A DNA stretch of 64,000 bases from an uncultured archaeon (GTDB taxonomy: Archaea; Nanobdellota; Nanobdellia; Woesearchaeales; UBA583): positions 616 to 64,615 of the forward strand of contig CAKZOW010000075.1 in NCBI GenBank assembly GCA_937138345.1, in the 5' to 3' direction. The notes under the pieces are model-generated. The model did not search any database and was not told the DNA's origin. It saw only the letters and a list, made by a program, of their open reading frames with translations. Below, in pieces: positions 4,816 through 62,973 of the stretch (positions within the stretch are counted from its first letter, which is position 1; every line of letters begins with the position of its first letter). The position numbers were made by a program, and so were the translations under genes.

Positions 4816-5996
4816 TGTTGTAATTGAGATTCAATAGTTTGAATAAATCTTTTTTTAAATTCATCAAAATCTTGCTTATTAACAGAACAACCACCTGCTT
4901 GATCATGACCTCCACCTTGACCATTAAGTCCAATTAGTGAATCAGAAATTGGTTTATTTACAATATAAGGATATCTTGATCTAAATGAGCAAGAATACCA
5001 CTCTGAATCCATTTTTGTAAAAATAAGCCACAATACTTTTGCTTCAGGTATCCTGTAGAGTAACTCTTCTGAGAGTTGCCTATTATAAGATGTTTTTCCT
5101 TTATGTTCAAATACTACAAATTCACGGCCCTTATTTTTGTCAACTGCTTTTTTCATAAGTTCCTTATGTTTCTTCATAAAAGCTGCATAATCTTCAAACA
5201 AAAAACCTTGACCTGCATCAATTGATATAATTAAATCATTAAAATCAATTTTTCTAATAATATCAACAGCTCTAGGAATATTCTCTGATTCAAGCTTATA
5301 GATAAAATCAACTAAACCTCTAATTTTCCCTAAATTTGTCTCATACCAAATCATCTGGATAAGTTGAGTTCTCTTCTCTTGAACAGAGATGTCATTAAAT
5401 TCATATGTTTTAATAAAATCAACTAATTCTGTTTTTCTTTTATCATCAATATTAATTAAAAAATCAAACAAACCTCTCTTTAAAGTATATAAATCCAATA
5501 GACAATCGAGTAAAAAGAAATCTGAAACCGACCCAATACAAACTAAAGGTAAGTTTTTTTTACTATTTTGAGAAATTAGATATGCCCAATAACATGAAGG
5601 CCTAGAATCTTTTGAATCAATATGAAGAAGCGGATTGAAATAGGTAATAGAATACTTCTCAACTAAAGGCAACATTGCATTAGTATGATGATCAACATAA
5701 TACATTTTTCTCAGTGGATTTTGTCCTAGTAAATGCTCTAAAAGTTCTTCCTCAATATGAGGCGTATCAAAAAAAAAAATTACATCGTGGTCTGAGCTAA
5801 CACATTCCTCAAAAGCTTTTAATTGAACGTCTTTAGTTTTAGAAATTGAAGTGGCCTGGAGTTTTGAATTTAAGTTTTTTAATTGAAAATATGAAAAAGT
5901 ACCATCCGCATCAGAATCATGAAATAAAAAAGGTTTTTTTGCATCTTTGAGTGCTGAAGAAAAATCAGCTAAGCGTTCTTGATAAGAAATATCCAT
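4812..5996 (-). CDS. DHH/DHHA1 family phosphoesterase (RecJ-like)
   Basis: DHH motifs present: HDSDADG, FFFDTPH, YYVDHHTN, plus the DHHA1 motif GGGHDQAGG. Confidence 0.7.
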   Translation of the reverse strand: MDISYQERLADFSSALKDAKKPFLFHDSDADGTFSYFQLKNLNSKLQATSISKTKDVQLKAFEECVSSDHDVIFFFDTPHIEEELLEHLLGQNPLRKMYYVDHHTNAMLPLVEKYSITYFNPLLHIDSKDSRPSCYWAYLISQNSKKNLPLVCIGSVSDFFLLDCLLDLYTLKRGLFDFLINIDDKRKTELVDFIKTYEFNDISVQEKRTQLIQMIWYETNLGKIRGLVDFIYKLESENIPRAVDIIRKIDFNDLIISIDAGQGFLFEDYAAFMKKHKELMKKAVDKNKGREFVVFEHKGKTSYNRQLSEELLYRIPEAKVLWLIFTKMDSEWYSCSFRSRYPYIVNKPISDSLIGLNGQGGGHDQAGGCSVNKQDFDEFKKRFIQTIESQLQH

Positions 5997-8887: not shown

Positions 8888-9634
8888 TTAATTCTTTTTT
8901 GAATGTAATTGCCACAAAAAAATTAAACCTACAACCATAAAAAGTAGTGAAAGTAGTTGTCCCATACCAATTGGCCCCACCCAAACTTCTGGTTCTCTAG
9001 TAAAATTAACTAAAAATCTCAAACCATTATAGAGAATTAAAAACCATGCTGTAAGAACTCCAGGTTTAAGTGATTTAAATACATATAAAAAAAGTAATAC
9101 TTGAAAAATAAAAAAGTTTTTTGCACTCTCATATAGTTGAGATGGATGTCTTAGTTGATCATCAACTAATGGGAAAGTTACTCCAAAAGACGATGATGTA
9201 ACCTTCCCAACTAATTCTTGATTAATATAATTAGTAATTCTTCCAAAAGCCATCACCAAAGTTAGAGGAATTACTAAAACATCTAATAATTTTAAAACAG
9301 GTACTCTATAATGCCTACATGCGTAAATAATTGCTACTGCACCACCAAAAATTCCTCCATGAATAGACATACCACCTTGATCCACACGAATAATTGCTAG
9401 AGGATTTGCTAAGAAATAATCTAAATTATAAAATAAAATATGACCTAATCTTCCACCAAGAAGTCCAAATAACATCCCATAAAACAAAATATTTTCCAGT
9501 GTCTCTTTTTTTGCTCCAATAAAATTACTCTGAGTTCTAACAAACCAATAAGTAAATAAAAAACCAAGAGCATAGACTAGACCATACCAGTAAATATCAA
9601 TTGGTCCAACACTAAGAGCAATAGGAGAAATCAT
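8888..9634 (-). CDS. lgt: prolipoprotein diacylglyceryl transferase (bacterial-type Lgt)
   Basis: Lgt signatures present: IYWYGLVYALGF, GGRLGH, SIHGGIFGG, FGRITNYINQELVG, RHPSQLYES. Confidence 0.85.
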   Translation of the reverse strand: MISPIALSVGPIDIYWYGLVYALGFLFTYWFVRTQSNFIGAKKETLENILFYGMLFGLLGGRLGHILFYNLDYFLANPLAIIRVDQGGMSIHGGIFGGAVAIIYACRHYRVPVLKLLDVLVIPLTLVMAFGRITNYINQELVGKVTSSSFGVTFPLVDDQLRHPSQLYESAKNFFIFQVLLFLYVFKSLKPGVLTAWFLILYNGLRFLVNFTREPEVWVGPIGMGQLLSLLFMVVGLIFLWQLHSKKN

Positions 9635-10819: not shown

Positions 10820-10842
10820 AAACGTCAAGACTGGGATTTGAA
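10820..10842 (-). repeat. displaced duplicate of the tRNA-Ser 3' end (T-loop position 54 to discriminator, plus 3 nt)
   Basis: 23-bp exact copy (aaacgtcaagactgggatttgaa) of 10965-10987. Identity breaks exactly at the T-stem/T-loop boundary. Confidence 0.9.
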
Positions 10843-10964
10843 ACTTTTTGAGCAAAGCTCACAAAGTGCAAGAACAAATCTTGGATTTGTGTTTAGCATC
10901 AGAATGTAATTCTGGATAGAGAAAATTCTAGTCTTAGGTTTTATTGAAGCGGAGCTGAAAATAA
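10843..10964 (-). repeat. 122-bp insert X-A between tRNA-Ser and its displaced 3' fragment (candidate miniature insertion element)
   Basis: Alignable over its length with 62796-62898. A perfect 15-mer acaaagtgcaagaac lies at 10861-10875 and 62814-62828. Confidence 0.6.
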
Positions 10965-10967
10965 AAA

Positions 10968-11050
10968 CGTCAAGACTGGGATTTGAACCCAGAATTCCAT
11001 AAGGAACAAGATTTCCAGTCTTGCGCAATACCGGATTATGCGATCTTGAC
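10968..11050 (-). tRNA. tRNA-Ser (anticodon GGA)
   Basis: Cloverleaf read by hand. Acceptor GTCAAGA/TCTTGAC, anticodon arm CAAGA-CTGGAAA-TCTTG, long variable arm TTCCTTATGGAATT, T arm CTGGG-TTCAAAT-CCCAG. No encoded CCA. T-run follows. Confidence 0.9.
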
Positions 11051-11054
11051 GTAA

Positions 11055-11104
11055 TGCAATGAAGTCAATATAGCGACCAAGAATTTGAGTATCAAATTGT
11101 TGAG
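11055..11104 (+). repeat. 50-bp insert Y-T between the tRNA-Ser 5' end and its displaced 5' fragment
   Basis: gcgaccaagaatttgagtatcaaattgttgagtatg matches the dphB spacer at 12510-12545 (28/36 ungapped), and the second spacer less closely. Confidence 0.6.
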
Positions 11105-11122
11105 TATGCGATCTTGACGTAA
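11105..11122 (-). repeat. displaced duplicate of the tRNA-Ser 5' end (4 nt upstream plus tRNA positions 1-14)
   Basis: 18-bp exact copy (tatgcgatcttgacgtaa) of 11037-11054. Confidence 0.9.
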
Positions 11123-11247
11123 GTGTAATTTGTAGTAATTATCTTACTATAATAATAAAACTTAATTCACCTTTAAAAATATTGTGTATGATGAAATGTT
11201 ATCACTTGATAAGAAAAATATTTAAACAAAATATTTTTTATCTAACT

Positions 11248-16320: not shown

Positions 16321-16467
16321 GGCTAGCTACCCCAGAAGCATCGTCCACCCCGCGATTCCCAAGCACTTTTTAACAAGCTTAGTGCTGCTGAGTTCCCCCC
16401 CTGACACGATTCACTTGAAAAAAAGCCATGGAAGACAGAGCTTCTACCTTATCTTCTAGGACTAACC
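16321..16467 (-). ncRNA. signal recognition particle RNA, short form (S-domain only)
   Basis: Minus strand reads GUG-UCAGGGG-GGAA-CUCAGCAG-CAC, the helix-8 symmetric-loop/GNRA motif of SRP RNA. The 5' GGUUAGU pairs with the 3' GCUAGCC. A TATA-like TTTATAAATA lies about 22 nt upstream and UUUU follows. GC-rich island in AT-rich DNA. Confidence 0.6.
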
Positions 16468-30182: not shown

Positions 30183-31013
30183 ATGAGCAAAAAACTACAA
30201 TATATTTCTCTAGGTAACAATGTTTCTCTAGAATCAATACTTGAACTTCAAAGAAAAATATGTAGTTTTTATAGGCAATATCCTGGAGTTAACTGTATGT
30301 ATTCTTTCTCACCAAAACCAACAATTACTCTTGGAAGTTACCACAGGGACAACAAATTACATCCGAGTTTAAATTCTCCAGTAATGAAACAAGAAGCAGG
30401 TGAACAAAGAACTCAAGAGATTGCTACTTATTTAAGAGATAAGTTAGATAATGAAATTTCAGTGTTAAATAATTCTAATCAAAGGCCCGGTGGAAGTACA
30501 TATAATGGGCCTGGACAATTAAGCTTCTTTTTTAATCTTGACCTAACACAAGAAAGTATTCATTTTGATGAACTCAAAAAAGTACTTGATGAATCTATGA
30601 TTGAAACTCTAAAATCATATAGAAATGATCTAAATTTTAACTATAAAAAACAAATTGATATCTTTACTACAATCGAGGGAACTGATTATAAAATTGCATC
30701 TCAAGGATTCAAAGTTTCAACTAATGAGTCTAAAGTTGAACATACAAGATACGGAGTCACATTTCATCTTTCTCAGGATTCCATTAAACCCTTTGATTCT
30801 TGGATTTTACCTTGTGGAGTTGAACCACATGAAGGAAAAGCAATAGCTCTTGAACAACTTATTGAAGAACCTGTAAATCAAGAACTCTTTGAAAATAAAT
30901 TTCTAGAAATATTTTCATCAAAACTAGGCTTTGAAGTTGATTCAACAAATATCATTGGAGATGTTATAAAAAAAGAGTTTGAAGAGATAGAGAGAAAATT
31001 AAAACTTAAATAG
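30183..31013 (+). CDS. lipB: octanoyl/lipoyl transferase LipB-like
   Basis: RPGGSTYNGPGQL (compare RGGxxTYHGPGQ), DYKIASQGFKV (catalytic Lys region), ILPCGV (catalytic Cys region). Confidence 0.6.
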   Translation: MSKKLQYISLGNNVSLESILELQRKICSFYRQYPGVNCMYSFSPKPTITLGSYHRDNKLHPSLNSPVMKQEAGEQRTQEIATYLRDKLDNEISVLNNSNQRPGGSTYNGPGQLSFFFNLDLTQESIHFDELKKVLDESMIETLKSYRNDLNFNYKKQIDIFTTIEGTDYKIASQGFKVSTNESKVEHTRYGVTFHLSQDSIKPFDSWILPCGVEPHEGKAIALEQLIEEPVNQELFENKFLEIFSSKLGFEVDSTNIIGDVIKKEFEEIERKLKLK

Positions 31014-31739
31014 CCAATCATCAGATTGTAAAAAATCTTTTTTTTCTTGTGCCATAAAAATTTCTTCTTTTGTAAAAGGTTGTTCAAGATAATCTAGACC
31101 TTTTAAAAAAGATTTTTCTAAATGTTTTTTTAATTCATCAAAAGAAACTGAAGAGAGATCAGAAATAGAAGTTACTTGCTTATCCTTTTCTAGAATTTTT
31201 TCTTGTTTTTGGTGATCATTTTCAGGTTTTAATAAATCATTTAAAATAGTTTTATCAACATCAAATAAAAGTGTTCCATGTAATTGAATTGCTCCATTAT
31301 CTTTTCTTATAGCAGAACCAGAAATTTTTCCCTTCTCTGTCATAATATCATTAATTGGTTTATGCCATGCTTTAATTCCTATTTGTTTTAAAGCATCAAT
31401 TATCTTTGAAGTACCATATTGATAGATTTCCTGTAAATTTTTACCTTCAAAGTAATCCTCTGGTACTGTGATTCCCCAACTTAAATCATGACGAGACAGA
31501 AAAGTAACACCTCCTGAAGATTTTCTTCTAAGAATCGCAATATTATTTTTTTGACATTTATCAACATCTAAAACATCTCTAATTTTTTGCGAGTAACCTA
31601 CATTGGCACAATCTCGATCCCATCCCGTAAAAGAGATAACTCCATTTCCAGTTTCTTTTACATAATCTAAAACAACATCATTTAATGCAATTCTCTCATA
31701 TATATCATAATACTTAAAGGGAAAATATCTCCATTTCAT
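30999..31739 (-). CDS. lplA: lipoate-protein ligase A (catalytic domain)
   Basis: RRKSSGGVTFLSRHDLSWG and GKISGSAIRKDNGAIQLHGTLLFDVD motifs. Its 3' end overlaps lipB by 15 bp (convergent). Confidence 0.8.
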   Translation of the reverse strand: MKWRYFPFKYYDIYERIALNDVVLDYVKETGNGVISFTGWDRDCANVGYSQKIRDVLDVDKCQKNNIAILRRKSSGGVTFLSRHDLSWGITVPEDYFEGKNLQEIYQYGTSKIIDALKQIGIKAWHKPINDIMTEKGKISGSAIRKDNGAIQLHGTLLFDVDKTILNDLLKPENDHQKQEKILEKDKQVTSISDLSSVSFDELKKHLEKSFLKGLDYLEQPFTKEEIFMAQEKKDFLQSDDWLFKF

Positions 31740-35110: not shown

Positions 35111-38100
35111 TCATTCTAATCCTACTAACACCTCTTTAAAGAATTCTCTTCTTGTTTGAGATGAAATATTTACTCTTAGTTCCCAAGAATTATCTAACGT
35201 TCGACTACCAGTATATGCACTAAATACTCCTTGATTTAGCATCAAAGAATAGAGCTCAAATTCATACAATGTTCCATTAGTTGAATATACATCAATTAGG
35301 TTTTCATTTTCTTGGAAAACGCTATATCTAAGTGAGCTTCCAACATCAAAACTACTTACAGAAACATAGTCTGGAACATAAAGATGCAATGTAATATTCT
35401 TATCAAGAGTAGTTTGATCAGATAATAAATTATTTACTCTAAAAATTGTATCATATACTCCTTCACCTAATTGAGTAGATTCTATTTCTAAAGATAAATT
35501 TGTATCAAAATTAATTTCATCAATTATCTCAACTGTTGTTAGTTGAGTTTGATCACCATTACTTAATTCTCCAAAAATATCATATGATGTATTAATATCA
35601 CCTGATGCATTAAGAAGATAACCAAGAACGATACTCTCACCAAATACTAAATTCAAATTCACTGGGTTTGGACCTTCAATGAACAACGGCAATTCTGCAC
35701 TCGTATTTGAAATTAATGAATATCTCCTCTCTTCAGATGAAAAAGAATAACTAGGATCTGATCCAAAATATTCTCTAATAAAAATATCATCTGTTAAATA
35801 CTCATTTCCACCATGAATTGTAAATCTACTAAATGATGAAAATGTATTATCATTTCCAGTCATAAAATTTAATTGAGTATAACTAGAATCAAAAATTTCA
35901 AATTCTATATCTTGGTTGAAATAAGAAAATCTTTGTGTATACCACGCATTCTGAGATGTTGCAAAATTAGTTCCTGTTGCAACAGTTGATGCTACGTCCC
36001 CTGTTCTCTCTTCAATTTGAAATTGTGTACTTGCCCCAAAATTATTCAGATAAGGACCATACCCATTCCCAGAATTGTCACTTAGTGCATACCGATTAGC
36101 ACCTCCACCATTAGTATTAATTCTATTTGTTTTCAGATACATTTCATAATTTACAAAGTTAAATCCTACATCTACAAATCCTCCATTAGGATCATCATTT
36201 GTATCTTTAAGCAAGGCTCTATTCCCACTAGTCTCTGTAGCTAATCGCACTACTCCCGAATCCAAGTCACTCCACCCAACTGGGAGACTTCCGTCTAATT
36301 GACTGACAAAATTTTCAAAGTCCTCAAAATACAAAAACGTCTCAGCACCGTCACTTCTACTGATAGCCTCATCATTACCATAATAAAATTCAAAATTATA
36401 TTGTTGAGAAACTACTAAAGGAATATGTGATTCAATAAAAATTCTAGCTACTTGAGATCCGAAATCACAGTAATCAACATAATAATCAAGTTCTAATCCT
36501 GATGATGAAAATAAAAAATCATTACATTGGTTATTCCAATTAAAATTAGACCCAACATTTGAATTATTTAACTCAAGTAGATATACAAAATTCTCAGTTG
36601 TTGTGGCAGGTGCTGTAAAGGAGATATTTTGCCTATATGCATAACTCCTATTAAACCAAGGTTTATCTAAATCATCAAAATATAAACTTGAAGTAATATT
36701 TGAGCAACCTAAAACATCTTGACAAGATACATTTACGCTAACTAAAAGAGTCGTATTTTGAATAACTTGAGTAGTAGATAATGGTAGAGGATTTACTAAA
36801 TCAATATCTAATGATTTAACTACAATTGAACATTGAAGTGTAAGAGTATCTGTAGTTGAAGTATCATCTGAACTAACTTCAAAAACTGCACTAACAGTAC
36901 CCACATTAGAATCTAAGCATGAAAAGAATACTTCCGAGCTTTGATTTTCTACAAGAGAAGATCCTTGAGTAAAACTTGTTGAAAAAGAAGAACAATTTCC
37001 TGAAATACAAGTAATAAAAATATTTGAATTTGCATATCTTGAAAATAAATTTGTAGAGTTGATTTCATTACCTTCACTTTGAAAAACTTCATCAAAAGTA
37101 ATTAATGAATCCTCAAAAGTTAACTGGTTTTCTCCTAAAATTCTCAATTCAAGTCTTTGAGTATCTACTAAATTACCTAACTCCCCAAACATAACATGTC
37201 TACTATCAACAGGACCTGTTGCATTAAGAAGATATGTTACAAGAGATGATGTTCCTGAACTTACATTGATGAACTGAGGATTACTATCTAAGTAAAAAGG
37301 AGTTGAGCCAAGAATTGGAGAAACTAATTCTTTAGAACCAATAGTCATCAAACCTTCTTCTAAAGTAAACCATGCAACATCTTCATTTGCGTGAGTATCA
37401 CAATCACCAGCACCATCTTGCTCACAATACCTCACCTCAGCACTAGTGCCGGACACGAGTCTAGCGCTTGGGTATTGAGGGTCCTGTGCTCCATTATCTG
37501 AGTTTTGATACACAGCAATAACTGGATCTACAAATGTCTCAGAAAAACTAACAGGAGTCCATTCAGAATTTCCAATACTCTCTTCTCCATTTGAAAACCT
37601 AGAAAAATCTGCATTTGAAAAATCAATTGCAACATATCCATAAGTCTCACTAAAAGTACCCGAACACGTATCGCCAGTCCCCGCATGATCACATGCAATA
37701 AGTGTAGCACCACTTGTTGTAATTGTTCCATCAACCCAACCACTAGGTGCAATCTGACCTGTTGCACTGGAATAGTCTTGAGCTTGTGCAAATACACTCG
37801 GAACATTAGAAAATGTTTTTGAAAAACTAAATGCGGTATCTGATCCATCAGTTGGAACATTAGAGAGAGTTCCAACATCAATCCAACTCAATCCTGAAAT
37901 AACATCAGAATCAAAAACCATGTAATGAACTTCTTCTTGTTCAACAACTGATGAACAAGTACTAGCACCAGCATCTTCACAAAGTGCAATAGTAAATCCC
38001 GTAGTATCTAGTGAAGTGATAACTGGAATTAAAGCATTATTGTCTGAATCTGTATCACTTACAGGAGTTGCAATTACAACAGGATTTGATGAATATTCTC

Positions 38101-41100
38101 TCTCAAAAGTAATTCTCTGTGATTCAAAATTCTCTAAAGTTACACTACCCGTCTCACCAATAGATTGCAAATCATAATACAAACTAACATTAACATCTAT
38201 ACAATCAACTACATCTGCACAAGTAACATTTAATGTAATTGGGAAGGTAGTATTTTGTTCAACATCAAAAAGAACATCTGGATCTGGATTTTGCATAGTA
38301 ACATAAAGTGGTAGCTCAGTTGCTTCACAATCTAAAGCAATAGTATCTCCACTTGAATCCTGATTAGAAAATACTTGAAATACAGCGCTAAAGTTTCCTG
38401 CAACAGATGCTGAACAGATAAATTCAATTTCTGAAGTGTTTAAAGAGTCAATAGTAGAACCTTGAGCAAACGGAGTTGAAAATAAAGAACAATCTCCACT
38501 CAAACAACTAACCTGAACATTAGTATGATCTACTACACTTGCATCAAGTTGAGTAGATAAACTAACAGGATTATAATTTACAACAACCCCATTAAAATTT
38601 AAAGTATCATCTACAAAAGAAATTCTTGGCCTATCAACAATACTAACATTTACTAAATTTGAAATAACTTCTGGAAGAGATGACTTTGTTCTAACTTCTA
38701 ATTCATGGAATGAACCCAAAGGACCTGTACTATTAACTTGAAAAGAAACTACACAAGAACCATCAATTGGCACTAAACAAGAATCAGTAGTAGAACCCAG
38801 GATTCTAAATGGAGATAACGAACTATTTGTAACTTGGATGCTATTTGCATACAAACTAACATCCACATCCCCACAAGAGCCATTACATGATAAATTTACA
38901 TCAAGGTTAAAACTTTGATTTTGAAGAACTTCAGTATTTGAAATTGGAGAAATAATTGTAGCATTTAATGAACTCTCACGAATAATAACACTCACATTAT
39001 TTGAAATTGGACCATAATTTGTTAAGCCAAATAATGTAAACAATGAATTCTCTGGAGCATTTGATGAAAGACTAAATGTTCTTGACTCTGAACTCCCCGC
39101 AGATACACTAAATGCTTGAGGATTCTGAGCAGTCCATAATGGATAAGTATTATTTATAGTAGAGATACTATCTTGACTTGAACTCATAGTTTGAATTAAA
39201 CCTTCCTCTAAAGCAAACCAAGCAACATCTTCATTTGCGTGAGTATCACAATCACCAGCTCCATCTTGTTCACAATACCTCACCTCTGCACTAGTGCCGG
39301 ACACGAGTCTAGCGCTTGGGTATTGTGGATCTTGACCCCCATTATCTGAGTTTTGATACACAGCAATAACAGGATCTACAAATGTCTCAGAAAAACTAAC
39401 TGGAGTCCATTCAGAATTTCCAATACTCTCCTCTCCATTTGAAAACTTAGAAAAATCTGCATTTGTAAAATCAATTGCAACATATCCATAAGTCTCACTA
39501 AAAGTCCCAGAACACGTATCGCCAGTCCCCGCATGATCACATGCAATAAGTGTAGCACCACTTGTTGTAATTGTTCCATCAACCCAACCACTAGGTGCAA
39601 TCTGACCTGTTGCACTGGAATAGTCTTGAGCTTGTGCAAATACACTCGGAACATTAGAAAATGTTTTTGAAAAACTAAATGCGGTATCTGATCCATCAGT
39701 TGGAACATTAGAGAGAGTTCCAACATCAATCCAACTCAATCCTGAAATAACATCAGAATCAAAAACCATGTAATGAACTTCTTCTTGTTCAACAACTGAT
39801 GAACAAGTACTAGCACCAGCATCCTCACATAATGAAAATTCAACATGTGTTGTATTAAGGTTATGAATAACTGGAATTAAAGCATTATTGTCGGAATCTG
39901 TATCACTTGCAGGAGTTGCAATTACAACAGGTGTTGAATTATATGTTTTCATAAATTCAATCAATACCCTTTGATTATTCTGAGTTGTAAATGAACCTGT
40001 CTCACCAATTGATTCTACTCCATCATAAATCAAATCTATAGTAACACCTGAACAATCAAGTGCACCTACACAACTAACATTAAATACAACATCAAGTCCT
40101 TCATTTAAATAAAAATCACTTGGATTAGCAATAGGAGATACAACATCAATAGTAATTGTTGAAGGTGGAGAAATTACAAAAGTATCTTCTAAATTAATTG
40201 TTGGTAATGTAGCATGAGAACAACTCACATTATAAAAAAAACTTCCTGCACTTGGAAAAGTTGAATAAAAATCATATTGCCCAATTGATGTATTATAGTT
40301 CATTGGAGAAAAAGAGCCATAACTTCCATTTGTATTAAATTGAATTTGACAATTTGCATCATCAACTTGTGATGTATTAACAAAACTATAATTTGCAAAA
40401 AAACCAATCTCAGTATTTATACCAACTGGAAAAAAATCACTATAATCATAAATTGATAAGGAACTATTTTCTACAACAGTATAATTTGAAAAATGAGGTA
40501 CACCTACTTCTAAAATTCCTCCAGAATAAGTTAAAATACTACATTGAGTACAAATACTATTTCCGTTAACCAATACAATCGGTTCAACTTCATCGATATT
40601 GTAAAATCTCAAAATAGCAGACACATTGTAGTTGGTAAGAACCTGAGAATCTAAGCTCATAAATGAATCAGAAATTGTAACATAAGTATCTAGATCTGCA
40701 TTGTCTGCATCAATACATTGTGTAAATTCAATACTCCCAAAAGAAGTATTTTCAAGAATTAAGTTACAAACATTTGAGATATTTGACACTAATGATAAAT
40801 CTGTTGTAGTACCATCAAAAGTTTCATAAGAAACATTCAATGGACTAATTAAAGTAATCTGTCTTGATAGTAATTCTACCTGAGATGAAGTTCTATCTTC
40901 TGCTCTTAGCGTAAAATTATAATTCCCAGGAGTTATTGAAATAGTTGTGGTGACATCGCTACAATCTGAACATAAAGAAACAAATGAACCACCATTTAAT
41001 GAATATGAGAAATCAGAACTTTTCGTTGCAAAAGCATCAACTAAAATTGAATTTCCAATAGATGTCAAATTCTCAAGCGGAGATATTAATGATACAACAT

Positions 41101-44100
41101 AAGGAATTACTACAGGTTCTAATACTTCAAAACTAACATCATCATTATCATAATACTGGCCCACATTTGCACAAAAATCATTTTCTCCATCCCAATCAAC
41201 AATACATCTTACATAATGAGTACCTGTTACATCATCCACAGTAAATGTTTGAGAAACAGAGTTAGGGTTTCCATCTACAGCATTACCACTGAAGAGCTGA
41301 GTCCAGTCTGTTGAATTGTAGTAATACATATATATCTCAGTTCCAGCGTCATAAGGATCATAAAAACAAGTAGCTTCAACACTAGTTCCCCAAAACATAG
41401 TTGACATATTAATTTCTACCTCTTGTACATTTTCATCACCAGCATTACCCAAACTACTTGAGCACGAATCAAAGGTATTATCTCCCTCGCTTGTTGCAGG
41501 CCACAAAGAACAATCAAAGCCAAAAGTATCACTACATGTCCTACCAGAAGTATTTATAAGAGTTAATGGATCTACATAAAAAACACTGAAATTTATTGTT
41601 TCATTGATAATTTCTGAAGTTAAAATGTCCTGAGCAAATAGTGTTAATGAATAATTACCATTTCTAAATACTTCATCAATTAGGAATGTATCACAAGATG
41701 AACATATCTCAACGCCTGGTCCACCATTAATTGAATAAGAAATATCTGCATTTTTTGAAGTAAGTCCTGAAATACTAATAACTGGATTAGTATATTCTAT
41801 ATTCAAAGGAGAAAGAAGAGATAATGTAAATGGGATTTCAACTAATTCTAAAACCTCAATACTTGCATCATCATTATCATAATAAGAACCACCATCTCCG
41901 CATTGATCATTCTCACCATCCCAGTCAACAATACACCTGTAATAATGAGTACCAACAACTGAGTCAACCTGATGAACAACACTCACATTATGAACATTAG
42001 CATCTGGAGCATTACCACTGTAGAGCTGAGTCCAATCTGTTGTGTTATAATAATAGATATACTCCTCAGTTCCTGCACCATAAGGATCAAATTGACATGT
42101 TACCTCAACACTATCTCCACCATACACTAATGTTGAATTAATAAAAACCTCGTCAACATGCTCGTCTCCAGCACCTCCTATCGCGCTTGGGCATGAGTCA
42201 AAGGTATTATCCCCCTCACTTGTTGCAGGCCACAAAGAACAATCAAAGCCAAAAGTATCACTACAAGTTCTCTGTGTACTATCAGCTGGAGGATTAATTA
42301 TATCACTAGTTACACTAAATGATTCTATCCATATATTTTCTTCCAATGTACTATCTGCTACTGCTCTAACTTCAATATCATAAGAACCAATAGTCAAAAA
42401 TATTATTTCATCAAAACTAATACAATTAGAACAAATTTCAATAAAAGAACCGCCATTAATTGAATAAGAAATAGTAGAGCTAACATCTGTAGTTCCAGCT
42501 ACAGTGATCAATGGTGATGAATATGCTAAGTTTTGAGGTGAAGTGATATTTAAAAACGGATTTAGTACTTCAAAACTAACATCATCATTATCATAATATT
42601 GTCCTGTCTCAGCACAAAAATCATTCTCACCATCCCAATCAATAATACATCTTACGTAATGAGTACCTGAAACTAAAGAAACGGGAATTGTCGCACTCAC
42701 TTGATGAACATTACCATCAGGAGCATTCCCAGCATATAATTGAATCCAATCTGTTGTATTGTAGTAATAAATATACTCTTCAGTTCCTGCACTATATGGA
42801 TCAAACGTACAAGTAGCTTCAACAGATTCTCCAAAATAAACCAAGGAAGAATTTACAATAACACTATCAACATGCTCATCATTAGCACCCCCAGTACTTG
42901 AAGGACATGAGTCAAAAGTATTATCTCCTTCGCTTGTTGCAGGCCAATCTGAGCAATCAAAGCCAAAAGTATCGGTACATGATCTCTGAGTTCCCTGTAC
43001 TAGTGGATCAATTGCAAAAAGCCATGATCTATTTTCAAGAAAGTAATCCTGTGTTCCATAAGAAATTTGAGCTCTTCCTAATTCATATAAATATGGAGTT
43101 AGCAGAGGAGTTTGAGAATAATAAAAGAAATTTTCATGTGTAGAAATATTATCCCAAATAAGATATTTTCTTGATTTATCTTCTGATTGTTCTACCCTAT
43201 CTGCATTAGTATCTGTAATCTCAAATGTTGAAGGAATACTTTCCCTTAATTCAGTTATTTGGTTTAACTCATAATTGGTTAAAGTAAATTCATTTCTAAA
43301 AGGCCCTAAAAAAGGATCAATTGTCGCTGGCACATTTCTTATAATATCAAAAGGAATAGTATCAACAACATTCACATAACTTTTTCTATTTAATTCATAA
43401 TCTCCTACCTGTGTCGTAACATCAATGAGATATTTTCCAGTCTCAGTTACATTATAATATGCAAAATATACACCATTTTTTTTACTCTCAACAATTCCTC
43501 TATCTTGTGTTGTTATTTGTATGAAATCCCCTCCTGGAGTTTCTAACTGAAGTGATATATTTGAAGAAGAAACTAAATAACCATTAGGATCTAAAACTAC
43601 AATTACAAATTTTACAATAGATTGTACTTCATAAAGAGGCTTTTGAGTATTAATTGAAACCAACCCATATGCAAAAAATTCATCATCTCCCATTATCGTT
43701 TCTTTCTTATAAATACCTGGAGTTAAATTTTGTAAACTTGAATTTACAAAAACCTCCTTAGTATTTAAGTTAATATAAGTATTTTCTTGAGATTGATTTT
43801 CTAAATCTTGAGATTCTAAAGAAGGTAGAAAAACTTTTTCCTGAGATCTAGCATTTGTCTCCTCGTCTAAAAATATTACTGTTGAATTCTCCAAAAGAAT
43901 AATCTCTTCATCTTTTTCAATAAGAACTTTTTCTTCAGTACCATCTAAATTAATTTTTGTAATTTCTCTTTGAGTATCAATACTCTGTTCTCTAAAAGAA
44001 GAATTAAATAAAGAAGTAGTATTTACACTTCTTGGTTTTTTAATTGGTTTCTCAACTTCCTCTTTTTTCTCAATAATACTCTCAAGTTCAGAATCATCTT

Positions 44101-44806
44101 GCTCGATAGAACCTGTATTTTCTCCCTCATCATCAAAATATCCTAATTCGAAACTATAAAGGCTCTCACCAAAATCACTATAAACATTAACCTGATATTC
44201 TCCTAAAATTAATGGCTGAGATACATTAAAAGAAAAACTACATTGATATATACAGTTGAGTGAAAATGATGTTTTTTGATCTGGAACAGATTTTGGAAAA
44301 ATATCAAAAAAAAATTCTCCTTCTTGAGTTGAAGTAAGAAATCCATTGACTTTAGTTGTAATAGAATCCCTAGTTACTTCTACCCTTTTTGGAAGGGACA
44401 CACTATAAATTTCATTTTTTATCTCCTCTAAAACAAAAGAACTTCTTTGTGTAAATTTATTTCTCTCATATCTTGTAGAAACAATAATTTCATGAACTCC
44501 AAATGTGGTTCTTCCAATTCTTAATTTTTCAAAACAACTATAACCTGAACAAGAAAATTTTCTTGATGAAATTACAATATTTTCAGAGTTAATAATTTCT
44601 ACATCAAATGTAATCTCAGTATCAATTTCTTTACTAATTCCTAAATCTAAAAAGTAACTTGAATCTTCAAAAACTACTTCAACATTAGATATTGAAAATA
44701 AACCATCAGATACTCGCTGCGTTGCTGAAAACAATGAAAATAGTAATAGTAATACAACAAATATACTAATACCTATTCTCTTTGAAATCTTCATAGAAGA
44801 TTTCAA
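35111..44806 (-). CDS. giant secreted surface protein (3231 aa) with multiple repeat classes and a DUF2341 + LamG-like region
   Basis: Uninterrupted 9.7-kb ORF with an N-terminal signal peptide. Contains three Cys-rich ~240-aa units, two ~275-aa near-identical units and recurring ~45-aa Ig/CARDB-like modules. The segment KPWFNRSYAYRQNISF...FYYGNDEA (about 36330-36670) fits DUF2341 and is followed by a ConA/LamG-like segment. Confidence 0.85.
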   Translation of the reverse strand: MKSSMKISKRIGISIFVVLLLLFSLFSATQRVSDGLFSISNVEVVFEDSSYFLDLGISKEIDTEITFDVEIINSENIVISSRKFSCSGYSCFEKLRIGRTTFGVHEIIVSTRYERNKFTQRSSFVLEEIKNEIYSVSLPKRVEVTRDSITTKVNGFLTSTQEGEFFFDIFPKSVPDQKTSFSLNCIYQCSFSFNVSQPLILGEYQVNVYSDFGESLYSFELGYFDDEGENTGSIEQDDSELESIIEKKEEVEKPIKKPRSVNTTSLFNSSFREQSIDTQREITKINLDGTEEKVLIEKDEEIILLENSTVIFLDEETNARSQEKVFLPSLESQDLENQSQENTYINLNTKEVFVNSSLQNLTPGIYKKETIMGDDEFFAYGLVSINTQKPLYEVQSIVKFVIVVLDPNGYLVSSSNISLQLETPGGDFIQITTQDRGIVESKKNGVYFAYYNVTETGKYLIDVTTQVGDYELNRKSYVNVVDTIPFDIIRNVPATIDPFLGPFRNEFTLTNYELNQITELRESIPSTFEITDTNADRVEQSEDKSRKYLIWDNISTHENFFYYSQTPLLTPYLYELGRAQISYGTQDYFLENRSWLFAIDPLVQGTQRSCTDTFGFDCSDWPATSEGDNTFDSCPSSTGGANDEHVDSVIVNSSLVYFGESVEATCTFDPYSAGTEEYIYYYNTTDWIQLYAGNAPDGNVHQVSATIPVSLVSGTHYVRCIIDWDGENDFCAETGQYYDNDDVSFEVLNPFLNITSPQNLAYSSPLITVAGTTDVSSTISYSINGGSFIEICSNCISFDEIIFLTIGSYDIEVRAVADSTLEENIWIESFSVTSDIINPPADSTQRTCSDTFGFDCSLWPATSEGDNTFDSCPSAIGGAGDEHVDEVFINSTLVYGGDSVEVTCQFDPYGAGTEEYIYYYNTTDWTQLYSGNAPDANVHNVSVVHQVDSVVGTHYYRCIVDWDGENDQCGDGGSYYDNDDASIEVLELVEIPFTLSLLSPLNIEYTNPVISISGLTSKNADISYSINGGPGVEICSSCDTFLIDEVFRNGNYSLTLFAQDILTSEIINETINFSVFYVDPLTLINTSGRTCSDTFGFDCSLWPATSEGDNTFDSCSSSLGNAGDENVQEVEINMSTMFWGTSVEATCFYDPYDAGTEIYMYYYNSTDWTQLFSGNAVDGNPNSVSQTFTVDDVTGTHYVRCIVDWDGENDFCANVGQYYDNDDVSFEVLEPVVIPYVVSLISPLENLTSIGNSILVDAFATKSSDFSYSLNGGSFVSLCSDCSDVTTTISITPGNYNFTLRAEDRTSSQVELLSRQITLISPLNVSYETFDGTTTDLSLVSNISNVCNLILENTSFGSIEFTQCIDADNADLDTYVTISDSFMSLDSQVLTNYNVSAILRFYNIDEVEPIVLVNGNSICTQCSILTYSGGILEVGVPHFSNYTVVENSSLSIYDYSDFFPVGINTEIGFFANYSFVNTSQVDDANCQIQFNTNGSYGSFSPMNYNTSIGQYDFYSTFPSAGSFFYNVSCSHATLPTINLEDTFVISPPSTITIDVVSPIANPSDFYLNEGLDVVFNVSCVGALDCSGVTIDLIYDGVESIGETGSFTTQNNQRVLIEFMKTYNSTPVVIATPASDTDSDNNALIPVIHNLNTTHVEFSLCEDAGASTCSSVVEQEEVHYMVFDSDVISGLSWIDVGTLSNVPTDGSDTAFSFSKTFSNVPSVFAQAQDYSSATGQIAPSGWVDGTITTSGATLIACDHAGTGDTCSGTFSETYGYVAIDFTNADFSKFSNGEESIGNSEWTPVSFSETFVDPVIAVYQNSDNGGQDPQYPSARLVSGTSAEVRYCEQDGAGDCDTHANEDVAWFALEEGLIQTMSSSQDSISTINNTYPLWTAQNPQAFSVSAGSSESRTFSLSSNAPENSLFTLFGLTNYGPISNNVSVIIRESSLNATIISPISNTEVLQNQSFNLDVNLSCNGSCGDVDVSLYANSIQVTNSSLSPFRILGSTTDSCLVPIDGSCVVSFQVNSTGPLGSFHELEVRTKSSLPEVISNLVNVSIVDRPRISFVDDTLNFNGVVVNYNPVSLSTQLDASVVDHTNVQVSCLSGDCSLFSTPFAQGSTIDSLNTSEIEFICSASVAGNFSAVFQVFSNQDSSGDTIALDCEATELPLYVTMQNPDPDVLFDVEQNTTFPITLNVTCADVVDCIDVNVSLYYDLQSIGETGSVTLENFESQRITFEREYSSNPVVIATPVSDTDSDNNALIPVITSLDTTGFTIALCEDAGASTCSSVVEQEEVHYMVFDSDVISGLSWIDVGTLSNVPTDGSDTAFSFSKTFSNVPSVFAQAQDYSSATGQIAPSGWVDGTITTSGATLIACDHAGTGDTCSGTFSETYGYVAIDFSNADFSRFSNGEESIGNSEWTPVSFSETFVDPVIAVYQNSDNGAQDPQYPSARLVSGTSAEVRYCEQDGAGDCDTHANEDVAWFTLEEGLMTIGSKELVSPILGSTPFYLDSNPQFINVSSGTSSLVTYLLNATGPVDSRHVMFGELGNLVDTQRLELRILGENQLTFEDSLITFDEVFQSEGNEINSTNLFSRYANSNIFITCISGNCSSFSTSFTQGSSLVENQSSEVFFSCLDSNVGTVSAVFEVSSDDTSTTDTLTLQCSIVVKSLDIDLVNPLPLSTTQVIQNTTLLVSVNVSCQDVLGCSNITSSLYFDDLDKPWFNRSYAYRQNISFTAPATTTENFVYLLELNNSNVGSNFNWNNQCNDFLFSSSGLELDYYVDYCDFGSQVARIFIESHIPLVVSQQYNFEFYYGNDEAISRSDGAETFLYFEDFENFVSQLDGSLPVGWSDLDSGVVRLATETSGNRALLKDTNDDPNGGFVDVGFNFVNYEMYLKTNRINTNGGGANRYALSDNSGNGYGPYLNNFGASTQFQIEERTGDVASTVATGTNFATSQNAWYTQRFSYFNQDIEFEIFDSSYTQLNFMTGNDNTFSSFSRFTIHGGNEYLTDDIFIREYFGSDPSYSFSSEERRYSLISNTSAELPLFIEGPNPVNLNLVFGESIVLGYLLNASGDINTSYDIFGELSNGDQTQLTTVEIIDEINFDTNLSLEIESTQLGEGVYDTIFRVNNLLSDQTTLDKNITLHLYVPDYVSVSSFDVGSSLRYSVFQENENLIDVYSTNGTLYEFELYSLMLNQGVFSAYTGSRTLDNSWELRVNISSQTRREFFKEVLVGLE
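37345..38170 (-). repeat. intragenic repeat copy R2 (~825 bp)
   Basis: Matches 39193-40018 at a fixed 1848-bp offset. 37663-37975 is identical to 39511-39823 (313 bp). Confidence 0.9.
39193..40018 (-). repeat. intragenic repeat copy R1 (~825 bp)
   Basis: See R2. The protein segments SIGETGS...VAWF(A/T)LEEGL are nearly identical. Confidence 0.9.
40850..42995 (-). repeat. three tandem ~720-bp units encoding a Cys-rich module plus an Ig-like domain
   Basis: Units start near 42995, 42277 and 41548. Conserved block C(T/S)DTFGFDCSxWPATSEGDNTFDSC ... GTHYVRCI(I/V)DWDGENDFC ... YYDNDDVSFEVL. Confidence 0.85.
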
Positions 44807-62775: not shown

Positions 62776-62795
62776 CCCTCCGACCGGGATTTGAA
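62776..62795 (-). repeat. displaced duplicate of the tRNA-Glu 3' end (T-loop position 54 to discriminator)
   Basis: 20-bp exact copy (ccctccgaccgggatttgaa) of 62899-62918. Identity breaks at the same T-loop position as at tRNA-Ser. Confidence 0.9.
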
Positions 62796-62898
62796 ACTTT
62801 GAGAGTGAAACGAACAAAGTGCAAGAACGAGCTTGGCGAGTGTCTGGCATAATGTTGAAAATTACACATAGAAAAATATCGTTGCTAAGCTATAAATA
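62796..62898 (-). repeat. 103-bp insert X-B between tRNA-Glu and its displaced 3' fragment (homologue of X-A)
   Basis: Begins actttgagag... (X-A begins actttttgag...). Shares acaaagtgcaagaac, gtgt.t.gcat..aatgt and atagaRaaaat blocks with 10843-10964. Confidence 0.6.
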
Positions 62899-62973
62899 CC
62901 CTCCGACCGGGATTTGAACCCGGGTCACAGCCGTGAGAGGGCTGCATGATTGGCCGGACTACACTATCGGAGG
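62899..62973 (-). tRNA. tRNA-Glu (anticodon CUC)
   Basis: CCTCCGA-TA-GTGTAGTCCGGCCAATCAT-G-CAGCC-CTCTCAC-GGCTG-TGAC-CCGGG-TTCAAAT-CCCGG-TCGGAGG-G. The D-arm is typical of archaeal tRNA-Glu. First pair reads C1-G72. TATA-like TTTTATTATAG upstream. No encoded CCA. Confidence 0.85.

Follow-up and report, generated by a model that had tools for sequence, protein, structure and literature searches.

Partial copies of tRNA genes routinely signal an integrated mobile element and are interpreted in this way by annotation pipelines. In archaea, partial tRNA copies have been described as the attR sites of mobile elements of 9 to 23 kb (PMC9897764), and archaeal attachment (att) sites range in length from 8 to 243 bp (PMC8371274). 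The closest described systems are the tRNA-integrating elements of the Sulfolobus spindle-shaped virus 1 (SSV1) type (fuselloviruses, pTN3, and the TKV-type elements of Thermococcales), in which a repeated tRNA segment reaches the 3' end of the gene and regenerates it. An attachment site inside the integrase (int) open reading frame (ORF) is a hallmark of the "suicidal" SSV-type integrases (PMC7253208, PMC8371274). Here we describe a tRNA-Ser(GGA) gene whose two ends are both repeated nearby. The gene lies in a 64,000-nucleotide stretch of contig CAKZOW010000075.1 (assembly GCA_937138345.1), referred to below as the window. The "elements" between such repeats are 50 to 160 bp long and geneless, occur at both gene ends, are shared between tRNAs and between genomes, and are gained, lost, and reordered among near-identical strains.

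The locus resembles the SSV1-type elements in several respects: the repeated tRNA segment runs to the 3' end, a sister strain has a predicted integrase of the same Pfam family and fold at this tRNA, the int ORF of relatives contains attP, and occupancy is tandem. It is unlike them in that 50 to 160 bp of noncoding DNA, rather than 5 to 25 kb, lies between the repeats; the repeats are 18 to 20 nt and begin at the T-loop, whereas that of the integrase element in the sister strain (contig L027) comprises about 45 to 53 nt from the anticodon arm; one unit is found at the 5' end of the gene; and homologous units carry different tRNA ends. In being nonautonomous, apparently att bounded, stacked, and reorderable, the units are also like integron cassette arrays and like cis-mobilizable elements (CIMEs), whose accretion-mobilization in Streptococcus was reportedly worked out by Pavlovic in 2004 and Bellanger in 2011. 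However, CIMEs are kilobase-scale, bacterial, and gene carrying, whereas the units here are archaeal and noncoding, and neither a dedicated integron integrase nor an attC-like folded site was identified.

Casposons offer another comparison, with long duplications (14 to 35 nt reported), a target at the T-psi-C loop and 3' end, arrays, and solo-end remnants in strains that lack full elements (PMC5137440, PMC4779613). Unlike casposons, the units have no terminal inverted repeats, no Cas1 or PolB was found in the window, and the duplicated segment is the T-loop-to-discriminator sequence itself and not mostly post-gene DNA. A population-variable 5' tRNA fragment upstream of an intact gene is known from Caldiarchaeum tRNA-Thr (Sugahara et al. 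2012, PMC3293823); there, 1.8 kb with a recombinase and gained introns are involved, whereas the present inserts are tiny and leave the gene unaltered. A literature search found no description of gene-less unit families of 50 to 160 bp that occupy both tRNA ends, are shared between tRNAs, and can be reordered, and none of a link between such units and SSV-type integrases in Nanoarchaeota.

Results

Two short insertions flank an intact tRNA-Ser(GGA)

A single tRNA-Ser(GGA) was called by ARAGORN and by Rfam (57.3 bits; gathering score, 29). The gene is 83 nt long, with a 7-bp acceptor stem (GTCAAGA/TCTTGAC), a long variable arm, and discriminator G73; CCA is not encoded. The 23-mer TTCAAATCCCAGTCTTGACGTTT, which spans the first base of the T-loop (nt 54) to G73 and then TTT, occurs exactly twice in the 64 kb, as does the 18-mer TTACGTCAAGATCGCATA (TTAC plus tRNA nt 1 to 14). 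No extra copy of either was found in the window with up to 3 mismatches. The chance expectation was 0.00 matches for the 23-mer and 0.01 for the 18-mer, and two copies were reached in no shuffle. The inserts measure 122 bp on the 3' side (125 bp with the shared TTT) and 50 bp on the 5' side. A preliminary description of this DNA, made by reading the sequence, had reported the same single gene, outer copies, insert sizes, and T-loop-to-gene-end extent of the 3' duplicate, and had seen nothing obvious encoded between; all of this was borne out, and the units have no coding similarity.

The locus has one intact tRNA gene, and the outer fragments are far-side copies that flank two separate short insertions, termed I5 (5' side) and S1 (3' side) (Table 1). 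Beside the outer 5' fragment, the upstream block runs on uninterrupted in the alignment, as it does in strains without the 5' insertion. The first part of I5 is the module CTCAACAATT-palindrome-AATTCTTGGT; a TATA-like GCTATATT also lies within I5, some 20 nt upstream of where the tRNA begins. S1 terminates in a stem-loop, ACTTT-G-TGAGC-TTT-GCTCA-A-AAAGT, directly against the distal repeat.

Table 1. Repeats, units, and genes at the two tRNA loci of the window
Feature	Position	Strand	Basis
Intact tRNA-Ser(GGA) gene	10968..11050	(-)	ARAGORN; Rfam RF00005; direct reading
Gene-side 3' repeat, nt 54-73 (T-loop to discriminator) + TTT	10965..10987	(-)	Exact 23-nt pair
Unit S1, 122 bp, noncoding	10843..10964	(-)	Collinear homologue of tRNA-Glu unit
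Distal 3' fragment, exact nt 54-73 + TTT, adjoins host flank	10820..10842	(-)	Exact 23-nt pair
Gene-side 5' repeat, TTAC + nt 1-14	11037..11054	(-)	Exact 18-nt pair
Unit I5, 50 bp, noncoding	11055..11104	(-)	Homologous to L025 spacer S3 and to S2 end
Outer 5' fragment, exact TTAC + nt 1-14, still attached to native upstream region	11105..11122	(-)	Exact pair; alignment
Conserved native upstream block (…AAAGGTGAATTAAGTTTTATTATTATAGTAAGATAATTACTACAAATTACAC)	11123..11180	(-)	Shared by window, L004, L015, L021
tRNA-Glu(CTC); nt 54-73 at 62899-62918 = gene-side 20-nt repeat	62899..62973	(-)	ARAGORN, Rfam
Unit SGlu, 103 bp, S1 homologue, directly after tRNA-Glu	62796..62898	(-)	Alignment
Distal exact 20-nt copy of tRNA-Glu nt 54-73 (TTCAAATCCCGGTCGGAGGG)	62776..62795	(-)	2 exact matches, 0 expected

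Contigs of the TARA strain described below break at the tRNA 3' end, which shows that the repeats trouble assemblers and would favor an assembly artifact or a strain chimera. However, an identical structure was recovered in at least four independent assemblies from other samples and assemblers (MEGAHIT contigs of the European Nucleotide Archive, a SPAdes NODE contig, and Logan), and the alternative structures described below were each recovered more than once. Because independent assemblies give the same structure, the locus is not regarded as an artifact, an explanation that the preliminary description had allowed for and that we consider extremely improbable.

The units are individually present or absent in related strains

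The locus was retrieved from several metagenomes by exact look-ups of neighbor proteins. Diphthine synthase served as the synteny anchor; the other neighbor, a 188-aa protein, has no homologues outside its own cluster. Four states, given here in tRNA orientation, were distinguished. In state A, represented by a related Nanoarchaeota metagenome-assembled genome (L015), the presumed promoter block is followed by the tRNA, a 93-bp unit (S2), a decayed fragment (CAAACCTCAGTCTTGACG), and the flank; the 5' duplication is absent, and S1 is not beside this tRNA. State B (L003 and L004) has the 5' duplication, the tRNA, S1, a fragment, S2 (95 bp), a second fragment, and the flank. State C (the window, L001, and L005) has the 5' duplication, the tRNA, S1, one fragment, and the flank, and this lone fragment has the left flank of fragment 1 and the right flank of fragment 2 of state B. 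State D is that of the TARA strain, whose diphthine synthase and 188-aa protein are 99% and 98% identical, respectively, to those of the window. Two of its contigs (L021 and L022) lack the 5' duplication and stop at the tRNA 3' end; in a third (L027), 17 nt separate the integrase gene from a partial tRNA of 53 nt (nt about 29 to 73), which is followed by S2, fragment, S1, fragment, flank, and 188-aa gene.

S1, S2, and I5 are discrete units that are individually present or absent. S2 is missing from the window and S1 from L015, and arrays of the two occur in both orders (S1-S2 in state B and S2-S1 in L027); S1 itself is 100% identical among the window, L027, and L004. The 68-bp 5' insertion (the 50-bp unit plus an 18-bp repeat) is a clean alignment gap in L015 and L021, and the TTAC before the tRNA that belongs to the 5' repeat reads TCAT or TCAC in sister strains. 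The comparison with empty sites that the preliminary description had proposed thus found the I5 site unoccupied in L015, L021, and L022, and the 5' duplication, which had seemed unexpected, is a separate, recent insertion of one unit among several. Because it is absent from a strain with a 99% identical neighbor gene, I5 is inserted foreign DNA and not a product of in-place decay.

The preliminary description had named decay of a second, tandem tRNA-Ser gene as the explanation that would replace insertion. Weak similarity to the tRNA body is present in two of the units: I5 positions 15 to 44 align in near register, if weakly, to tRNA nt 32 to 60 (z = 3.5; equaled by 6 of 1,000 shuffles), and S2 aligns to nt 14 to 54 (z = 2.6; equaled by 23 of 1,000). 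S1, however, gave a z score of only 0.8, and at the repeat boundary identity falls sharply from 100% over 18 to 23 nt to about 55 to 60% or none. The near identity of the strain that lacks the 68-bp insertion leaves no time for decay, and I5 is homologous to spacers in unrelated contigs (see below). Tandem duplication followed by decay of the outer copies is therefore very unlikely. Weak tRNA-likeness next to an identity block, as seen in I5 and S2, would instead be the pattern of tRNA-derived attP arms.

The syntenic site of one further relative (L024; diphthine synthase 80% identical) holds a tRNA-Ser(TGA) at positions 1764 to 1846, beside a 120-aa gene and diphthine synthase. Its body is very like that of tRNA-Ser(GGA), and its ends are not duplicated; it looks like an anticodon change or a gene replacement at the orthologous locus.

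I5 displaces the upstream block (TTTTATTATTATAG), presumed to be the archaeal promoter/TATA region, by 68 bp from the gene. Transcription may still start at the displaced block, in which case the leader (nt 1 to 14 plus I5) would be removed by RNase P; alternatively, the TATA-like sequence in I5 may have taken over as promoter. Termination of the tRNA transcript may occur at the initial T-run of S1. Split tRNA genes are known in Nanoarchaeota, and in an RNA fold a second acceptor stem that encloses the locus can form from the outer fragments (z = -4.5, expected from the duplication itself), so that the fragments might be functional RNA parts, either of a split, permuted, or intron-containing tRNA or of a processing or decoy structure. 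Yet the inner gene is complete alone and scores as a normal tRNA, the units differ in presence and order between near-identical strains, with those at the 5' and 3' ends varying independently of each other. In Rfam searches, which extended to the TARA element and the L004 locus, no family but tRNA matched (bulge-helix-bulge motifs were not specifically sought). A functional role of this kind is very improbable.

The tRNA-Glu gene has a homologous unit

The preliminary description had suggested a search for further tRNA genes followed by a T-loop-to-3'-end duplicate, and one lies within the window. Its second tRNA, tRNA-Glu(CTC), is followed by a 103-bp unit, SGlu, and then by an exact 20-nt copy of its own nt 54 to 73. 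The site was compared over ten further contigs. It is empty, with the tRNA joined precisely to CTTATTACATT, in five (L037, L039 [TARA], L040, L045, and L046), and four (L038 and L042 to L044) hold the same unit, as a 123-bp insertion. In the remaining contig, L041, the site is occupied by a 161-nt variant that has diverged, contains internal duplications, and has the same 20-nt repeat; divergence is far smaller in its flanks than in the unit.

S1 and SGlu are collinear over about 90 nt (score, 24.5; z = 10.5), which was matched by no shuffle. They have in common the 15-mer GTTCTTGCACTTTGT and the terminus …CAAAGT immediately before TTCAAATCC. Both boundaries, right after G73 and right before the T-loop, are shared, yet the repeats around each unit come from the tRNA at which it sits. 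A consensus RNA structure of S1 and SGlu was uninformative with only two sequences.

Families of units without terminal inverted repeats

Related arrangements were found in other Nanoarchaeota, on contigs linked to integrases (L033, L034, L035, and L025). In these, a partial tRNA-Ser(GCT) is followed by a spacer and then by a T-loop-to-3' fragment; the fragments are 12 to 20 nt, are partly decayed, and start at the T-loop. The spacers (81 to 107 nt in L033 to L035 and 58 nt in L025) are mutually related (z = 4.6 to 8.4). The 58-nt spacer, S3, lies between the two tRNA-Ser fragments of L025, interrupting the partial tRNA, and I5 matches it end to end (z = 8.2). I5 nt 1 to 29 also match the reverse complement of the S2 right end (z = 5.9), which carries the same module as the start of I5. 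The unit termini read CTCAAMAATT…CTTGGT and TTTTTATTTTCAGC…GCACTTTGT…AAAGT.

On L025 itself (positions 4884 to 4990, minus strand), the I5-homologous spacer breaks, at the T-stem, a partial sequence resembling the anticodon and variable arm of tRNA-Ser(GCT). The T-loop-to-3' fragment there is identical to that of tRNA-Ser(GGA), and the contig has no intact tRNA.

No terminal inverted repeats were detected when the first 35 nt of each unit were compared with its reverse-complemented last 35 nt (z ≤ 0.2 for S1, SGlu, and S2). The same end test gave a z score of 2.2 for two S3 spacers and of 3.4 for I5, whose overlapping 35-nt ends share one internal palindrome. A search of the window and of fetched loci turned up copies of the units at tRNA ends only, with none dispersed elsewhere. 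In being short and noncoding, the units resemble miniature inverted-repeat transposable elements, but in the window and fetched loci they have neither the inverted repeats nor the dispersed copies of such elements.

Full-size proviruses or plasmids might have been eroded to passive scars by random deletions that spared both att copies. Integrase-bearing elements do use these tRNAs (see below), and small DPANN genomes may be deletion-prone. Loss of integrase genes and erosion of integrated elements are documented in archaea (PMC8371274). However, two random deletions would not reproduce the collinearity and shared boundaries of S1 and SGlu or the end-to-end match between I5 and S3, and no unit retains an integrase coding remnant. 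That six or more separate cases all ended at 50 to 160 bp would have to be a coincidence. We regard the scar explanation as quite improbable.

SSV1-type predicted integrases occur at the same tRNAs

Elements with tyrosine integrases occupy the same two tRNAs in relatives, tRNA-Ser in L027 and tRNA-Glu in L036. The L027 integrase scored 105.8 bits against Pfam PF16795 (archaeal phage integrase); over the L027, L036, and L033 proteins, the scores ranged from 92 to 106 bits. A profile built from the L027 protein and 20 relatives matched the catalytic structures of the SSV1 integrase (3UXU, 3VCF, and 4DKS) with E values of about 1e-23. Among the 42 relatives of the L027 integrase, several are named Nanoarchaeota or Woesearchaeota. 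Full-length relatives are 340 to 365 aa and share an N-terminal motif, KxRVxITLD…LINxLL, which looks ribbon-helix-helix-like. After this motif come peptides (GSNPS, RVRIP, GIEPTT, and DLNSGPP) that are tRNA T-arm DNA translated in either orientation. Across seven integrase relatives (P0131, P0136, P0138, P0139, P0140, P0144, and P0162), such peptides also include GFEPGT. Because these ORFs translate T-arm DNA, attP is placed within the int ORF in the relatives. Judged by their sequences, the L027, L036, and L033 proteins are SSV1-type predicted integrases, and the form with attP in the ORF is present in DPANN archaea.

The L027 element occupies tRNA-Ser before the same downstream 188-aa gene as in the window. 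At the Spt4-Rpb7-CBS locus, which is syntenic in L036, a related integrase ORF lies 5 nt downstream of tRNA-Glu(CTC), and in the GSNP frame it remains open upstream across the tRNA. Open frames also span S1 and SGlu, and SGlu has a TATA-like start with an ATG about 26 nt later, in the frame of the L036 integrase. The units were considered as the N-terminal piece of a split SSV-type integrase, and this was rejected: blastx was negative, and the conserved KxRVxITLD…LINxLL motif cannot be encoded.

Both integrase elements hold TATGTAC iterons, in arrays of repeated ACTATGTACTT at positions 255 to 305 of L027 and 13425 to 13640 of L036; these are perhaps the replication origin or a regulator-binding region of one element family. 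At positions 540 to 800 of L027, about 250 nt are far more G+C rich than their surroundings and contain long complementary segments; no Rfam family matched at E ≤ 0.1, and the region may be an element-encoded structured RNA. Genes of the bAvd/23S_rRNA_IVP fold occur on two Nanoarchaeota contigs with SSV-type integrases, adjacent to the integrase in L031 (10537 to 10893) and about 2.8 kb from it in L032 (3730 to 4080). The bAvd fold is that of accessory proteins of diversity-generating retroelements.

Site-specific recombination and transposition as possible origins of the units

The outer tRNA fragments are, with high probability, duplications left as footprints by the insertion of mobile DNA. 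It is firmly supported that discrete mini-units were inserted independently and that the gene was regenerated each time. The most likely account of the units is that they are minimal att-bearing derivatives, or hitch-hikers, of SSV1-type elements, placed in trans; the narrower claim that tyrosine-integrase att recombination made them is evenly balanced in our judgment. In its favor, both tRNA-Ser and tRNA-Glu show the configuration of an att pair, a repeated tRNA part with one copy completing the intact gene, and the repeats begin at a loop boundary and reach the gene end, as an att identity block would. The preliminary description had already likened the 3' duplicate to such a block. That likeness gains from the integrase element at the same tRNA in a sister strain, but the 122 bp behind the gene is the discrete unit S1, and the inserts at these sites (50 to 161 bp, with no coding similarity) are not kilobase-scale, gene-carrying elements.

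A number of observations weigh against att recombination. An integrase beside the repeats is found only in L027 (same tRNA) and L036 (tRNA-Glu); in the window, tblastn with five integrases and Pfam detected no integrase, transposase, Cas1, or PolB. No protein-level similarity of the units to integrases was found by blastx against the 42 integrase relatives (best E value, 0.2 in a tiny database). Four DNA-pattern scans of viral contigs yielded no free element with the att core or the units, and a protein-profile scan of viral contigs found no integrase relatives. The identity block of the L027 element (nt about 29 to 73) is longer than the 18 to 20 nt of the units, and circles of 68 to 145 bp would be very small substrates for a tyrosine recombinase. 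The 5' repeat holds 4 non-tRNA, strain-variable bases (TTAC versus TCAT or TCAC), which is more natural for a copied target. The terminal module shared by I5 and S2 occurs in both orientations relative to the tRNA. Finally, because S1 and SGlu are collinear and each has its own tRNA end, the att model needs an att switch in an element of about 100 bp.

Scans of genome contigs and metagenomes for the tRNA end, which used an 18- to 19-nt pattern only, likewise showed no free element. The genome scan returned mostly bacterial tRNA-Ser genes (Nostoc and Pseudomonas) that share the 18-mer, with only L015 and L018 relevant, and the metagenome scan returned one locus, L025. One exact 20-mer of S1 in a viral contig (L026) was dismissed as a chance match, since it lies in a high-G+C phage contig with unrelated flanks. 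The junction of an excised circle (unit end, single repeat, unit start) would read, e.g., AAAAAGT-TTCAAATCCCAGTCTTGACG-TTTTTATTTTCAG.

Several of these points are what would be expected of miniature nonautonomous transposons, inserted by a casposase-like or other integrase whose nicks are staggered by 18 to 20 bp, so that the repeats would be target-site duplications. The tRNA body would then be CRISPR-leader-like and the duplicated gene end repeat-like. Homologous, collinear units at two tRNAs, each flanked by that tRNA's own nt 54 to 73, fit this explanation: the T-loop start to the discriminator is 20 nt in any tRNA, and a fixed ruler anchored on TTCAAATCC would explain both cases. So do the 4 strain-variable bases in the 5' duplication, the two orientations of the terminal module, the very small size of the units, and the diverged family members at the same tRNA-Glu site in different strains. 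Owing to the self-complementary acceptor stem, TCTTGACGT is found both at the 3' end and in the 5' target as read on the opposite strand (TATGCGATCTTGACGTAA). There is also a precedent in a casposon that makes a 15-bp duplication over the tRNA-Pro 3' end and needs a T-psi-C-loop segment (PMC5137440, PMC4779613). Against transposition, the units lack terminal inverted repeats, the window lacks Cas1, PolB, and a transposase, and no report of casposons in this lineage turned up in the literature search. Duplication lengths vary (18, 19, and 20 to 23 nt), I5 and S2 carry weak tRNA-like sequence beside the repeat, and it is tyrosine-integrase elements that are demonstrably found at these tRNAs. Taken together, transposition is a possible but somewhat unlikely origin.

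A more specific version, in which the tRNA ends act as the leader plus repeat of a primitive insertion array and a T-arm-anchored Cas1/casposase-like or other integrase measures about 20 bp, is distinctly unlikely. If true, the array would be a present-day counterpart of the casposon-to-CRISPR transition that has been proposed, with the 5' end hit via the self-complementarity of the acceptor stem.

Genomic context

The host is a DPANN archaeon of the Nanoarchaeota/Woesearchaeota type. The gene adjoining tRNA-Ser encodes diphthine synthase, whose relatives are named Woesearchaeota or Nanoarchaeota; an extension of the contig encodes ribosomal protein L10 with the archaeal P0 insertion domain; and one related contig belongs to "Nanoarchaeota archaeon DS_MAG177." The window has a G+C content of about 29% and encodes housekeeping functions, among them a pyruvate/2-oxoacid dehydrogenase complex, pentose-phosphate enzymes, GyrA, SOD, and GDH.

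Three genes from the tRNA, at 8888 to 9634 (minus strand), lies a full-length gene for prolipoprotein diacylglyceryl transferase (LGT, PF01790; E = 1.7e-65), which is typically bacterial. At 16344 to 16441 (minus strand), the best Rfam match to a signal recognition particle (SRP) RNA is the bacterial small (4.5S-type) model, matched over its full length at 48.8 bits (gathering score, 40); two overlapping matches of the same clan score lower. This may be the reduced SRP RNA of a DPANN archaeon. A bacterial impression given by these two features was dropped in view of the archaeal P0 domain, diphthine synthase, and the Nanoarchaeota- and Woesearchaeota-named relatives.

A tRNA-SeC called by ARAGORN at 30805 to 30899 (minus strand) is almost certainly a false positive; Rfam finds no tRNA there, and it lies inside ORFs for lipoate-protein ligase (30183 to 31013, plus strand, and 30999 to 31739, minus strand). 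A giant, unannotated ORF of 3,231 aa with internal repeats occupies 35111 to 44806 (minus strand). It includes two identical 117-aa internal ORFs (37528 to 37881 and 39376 to 39729) that are 1,848 bp apart, as are identical weak tblastn matches.

Discussion

A working model for the locus can be outlined on the assumption that att recombination made the units. The tRNAs concerned are attachment sites of plasmid- or virus-like elements with SSV1-type tyrosine integrases, and the machinery of these larger elements would place the units in trans by site-specific recombination. In this group of Nanoarchaeota, the units at tRNA ends lie between 18- to 20-bp copies of the gene end, comprising nt 54 or 56 to 73 at the 3' end and -4 to +14 at the 5' end. 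At tRNA-Ser(GGA), two independent insertions, I5 at the 5' end and S1 at the 3' end, account for the arrangement in the window; since each insertion regenerates the gene, the tRNA stays functional.

The repeated tRNA ends allow units to be added, deleted, and reordered in the population and would act as recombination sites, whether site specific or by short homology. State C can be derived from state B by recombination between the fragments; unequal exchange, or excision followed by reinsertion, can give states B and D, each from single-unit alleles. Which enzyme acts, and whether the duplicated bases are att borne or copied from the target, are points that we infer.

The finding has a bearing on how small a mobile element can be. 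If the units are minimal att cassettes of SSV-type integrases, they would show how small a mobilizable unit can be. The 2021 review of archaeal tyrosine recombinases, in which SSV-type integrases are mainly those of thermophilic archaea, mentions neither DPANN nor Nanoarchaeota; the present reading, if true, would widen the range of these integrases to DPANN archaea, marine ones included. If the duplications are instead copied from the target, they would indicate an undescribed integrase that measures tRNA ends in a manner resembling casposon and CRISPR spacer insertion. Either way, the loci provide a compact marker, variable within populations, for traffic at the tRNA attachment sites of uncultured archaea, and they bear on ideas that mobile elements drive the fragmentation of tRNA genes.

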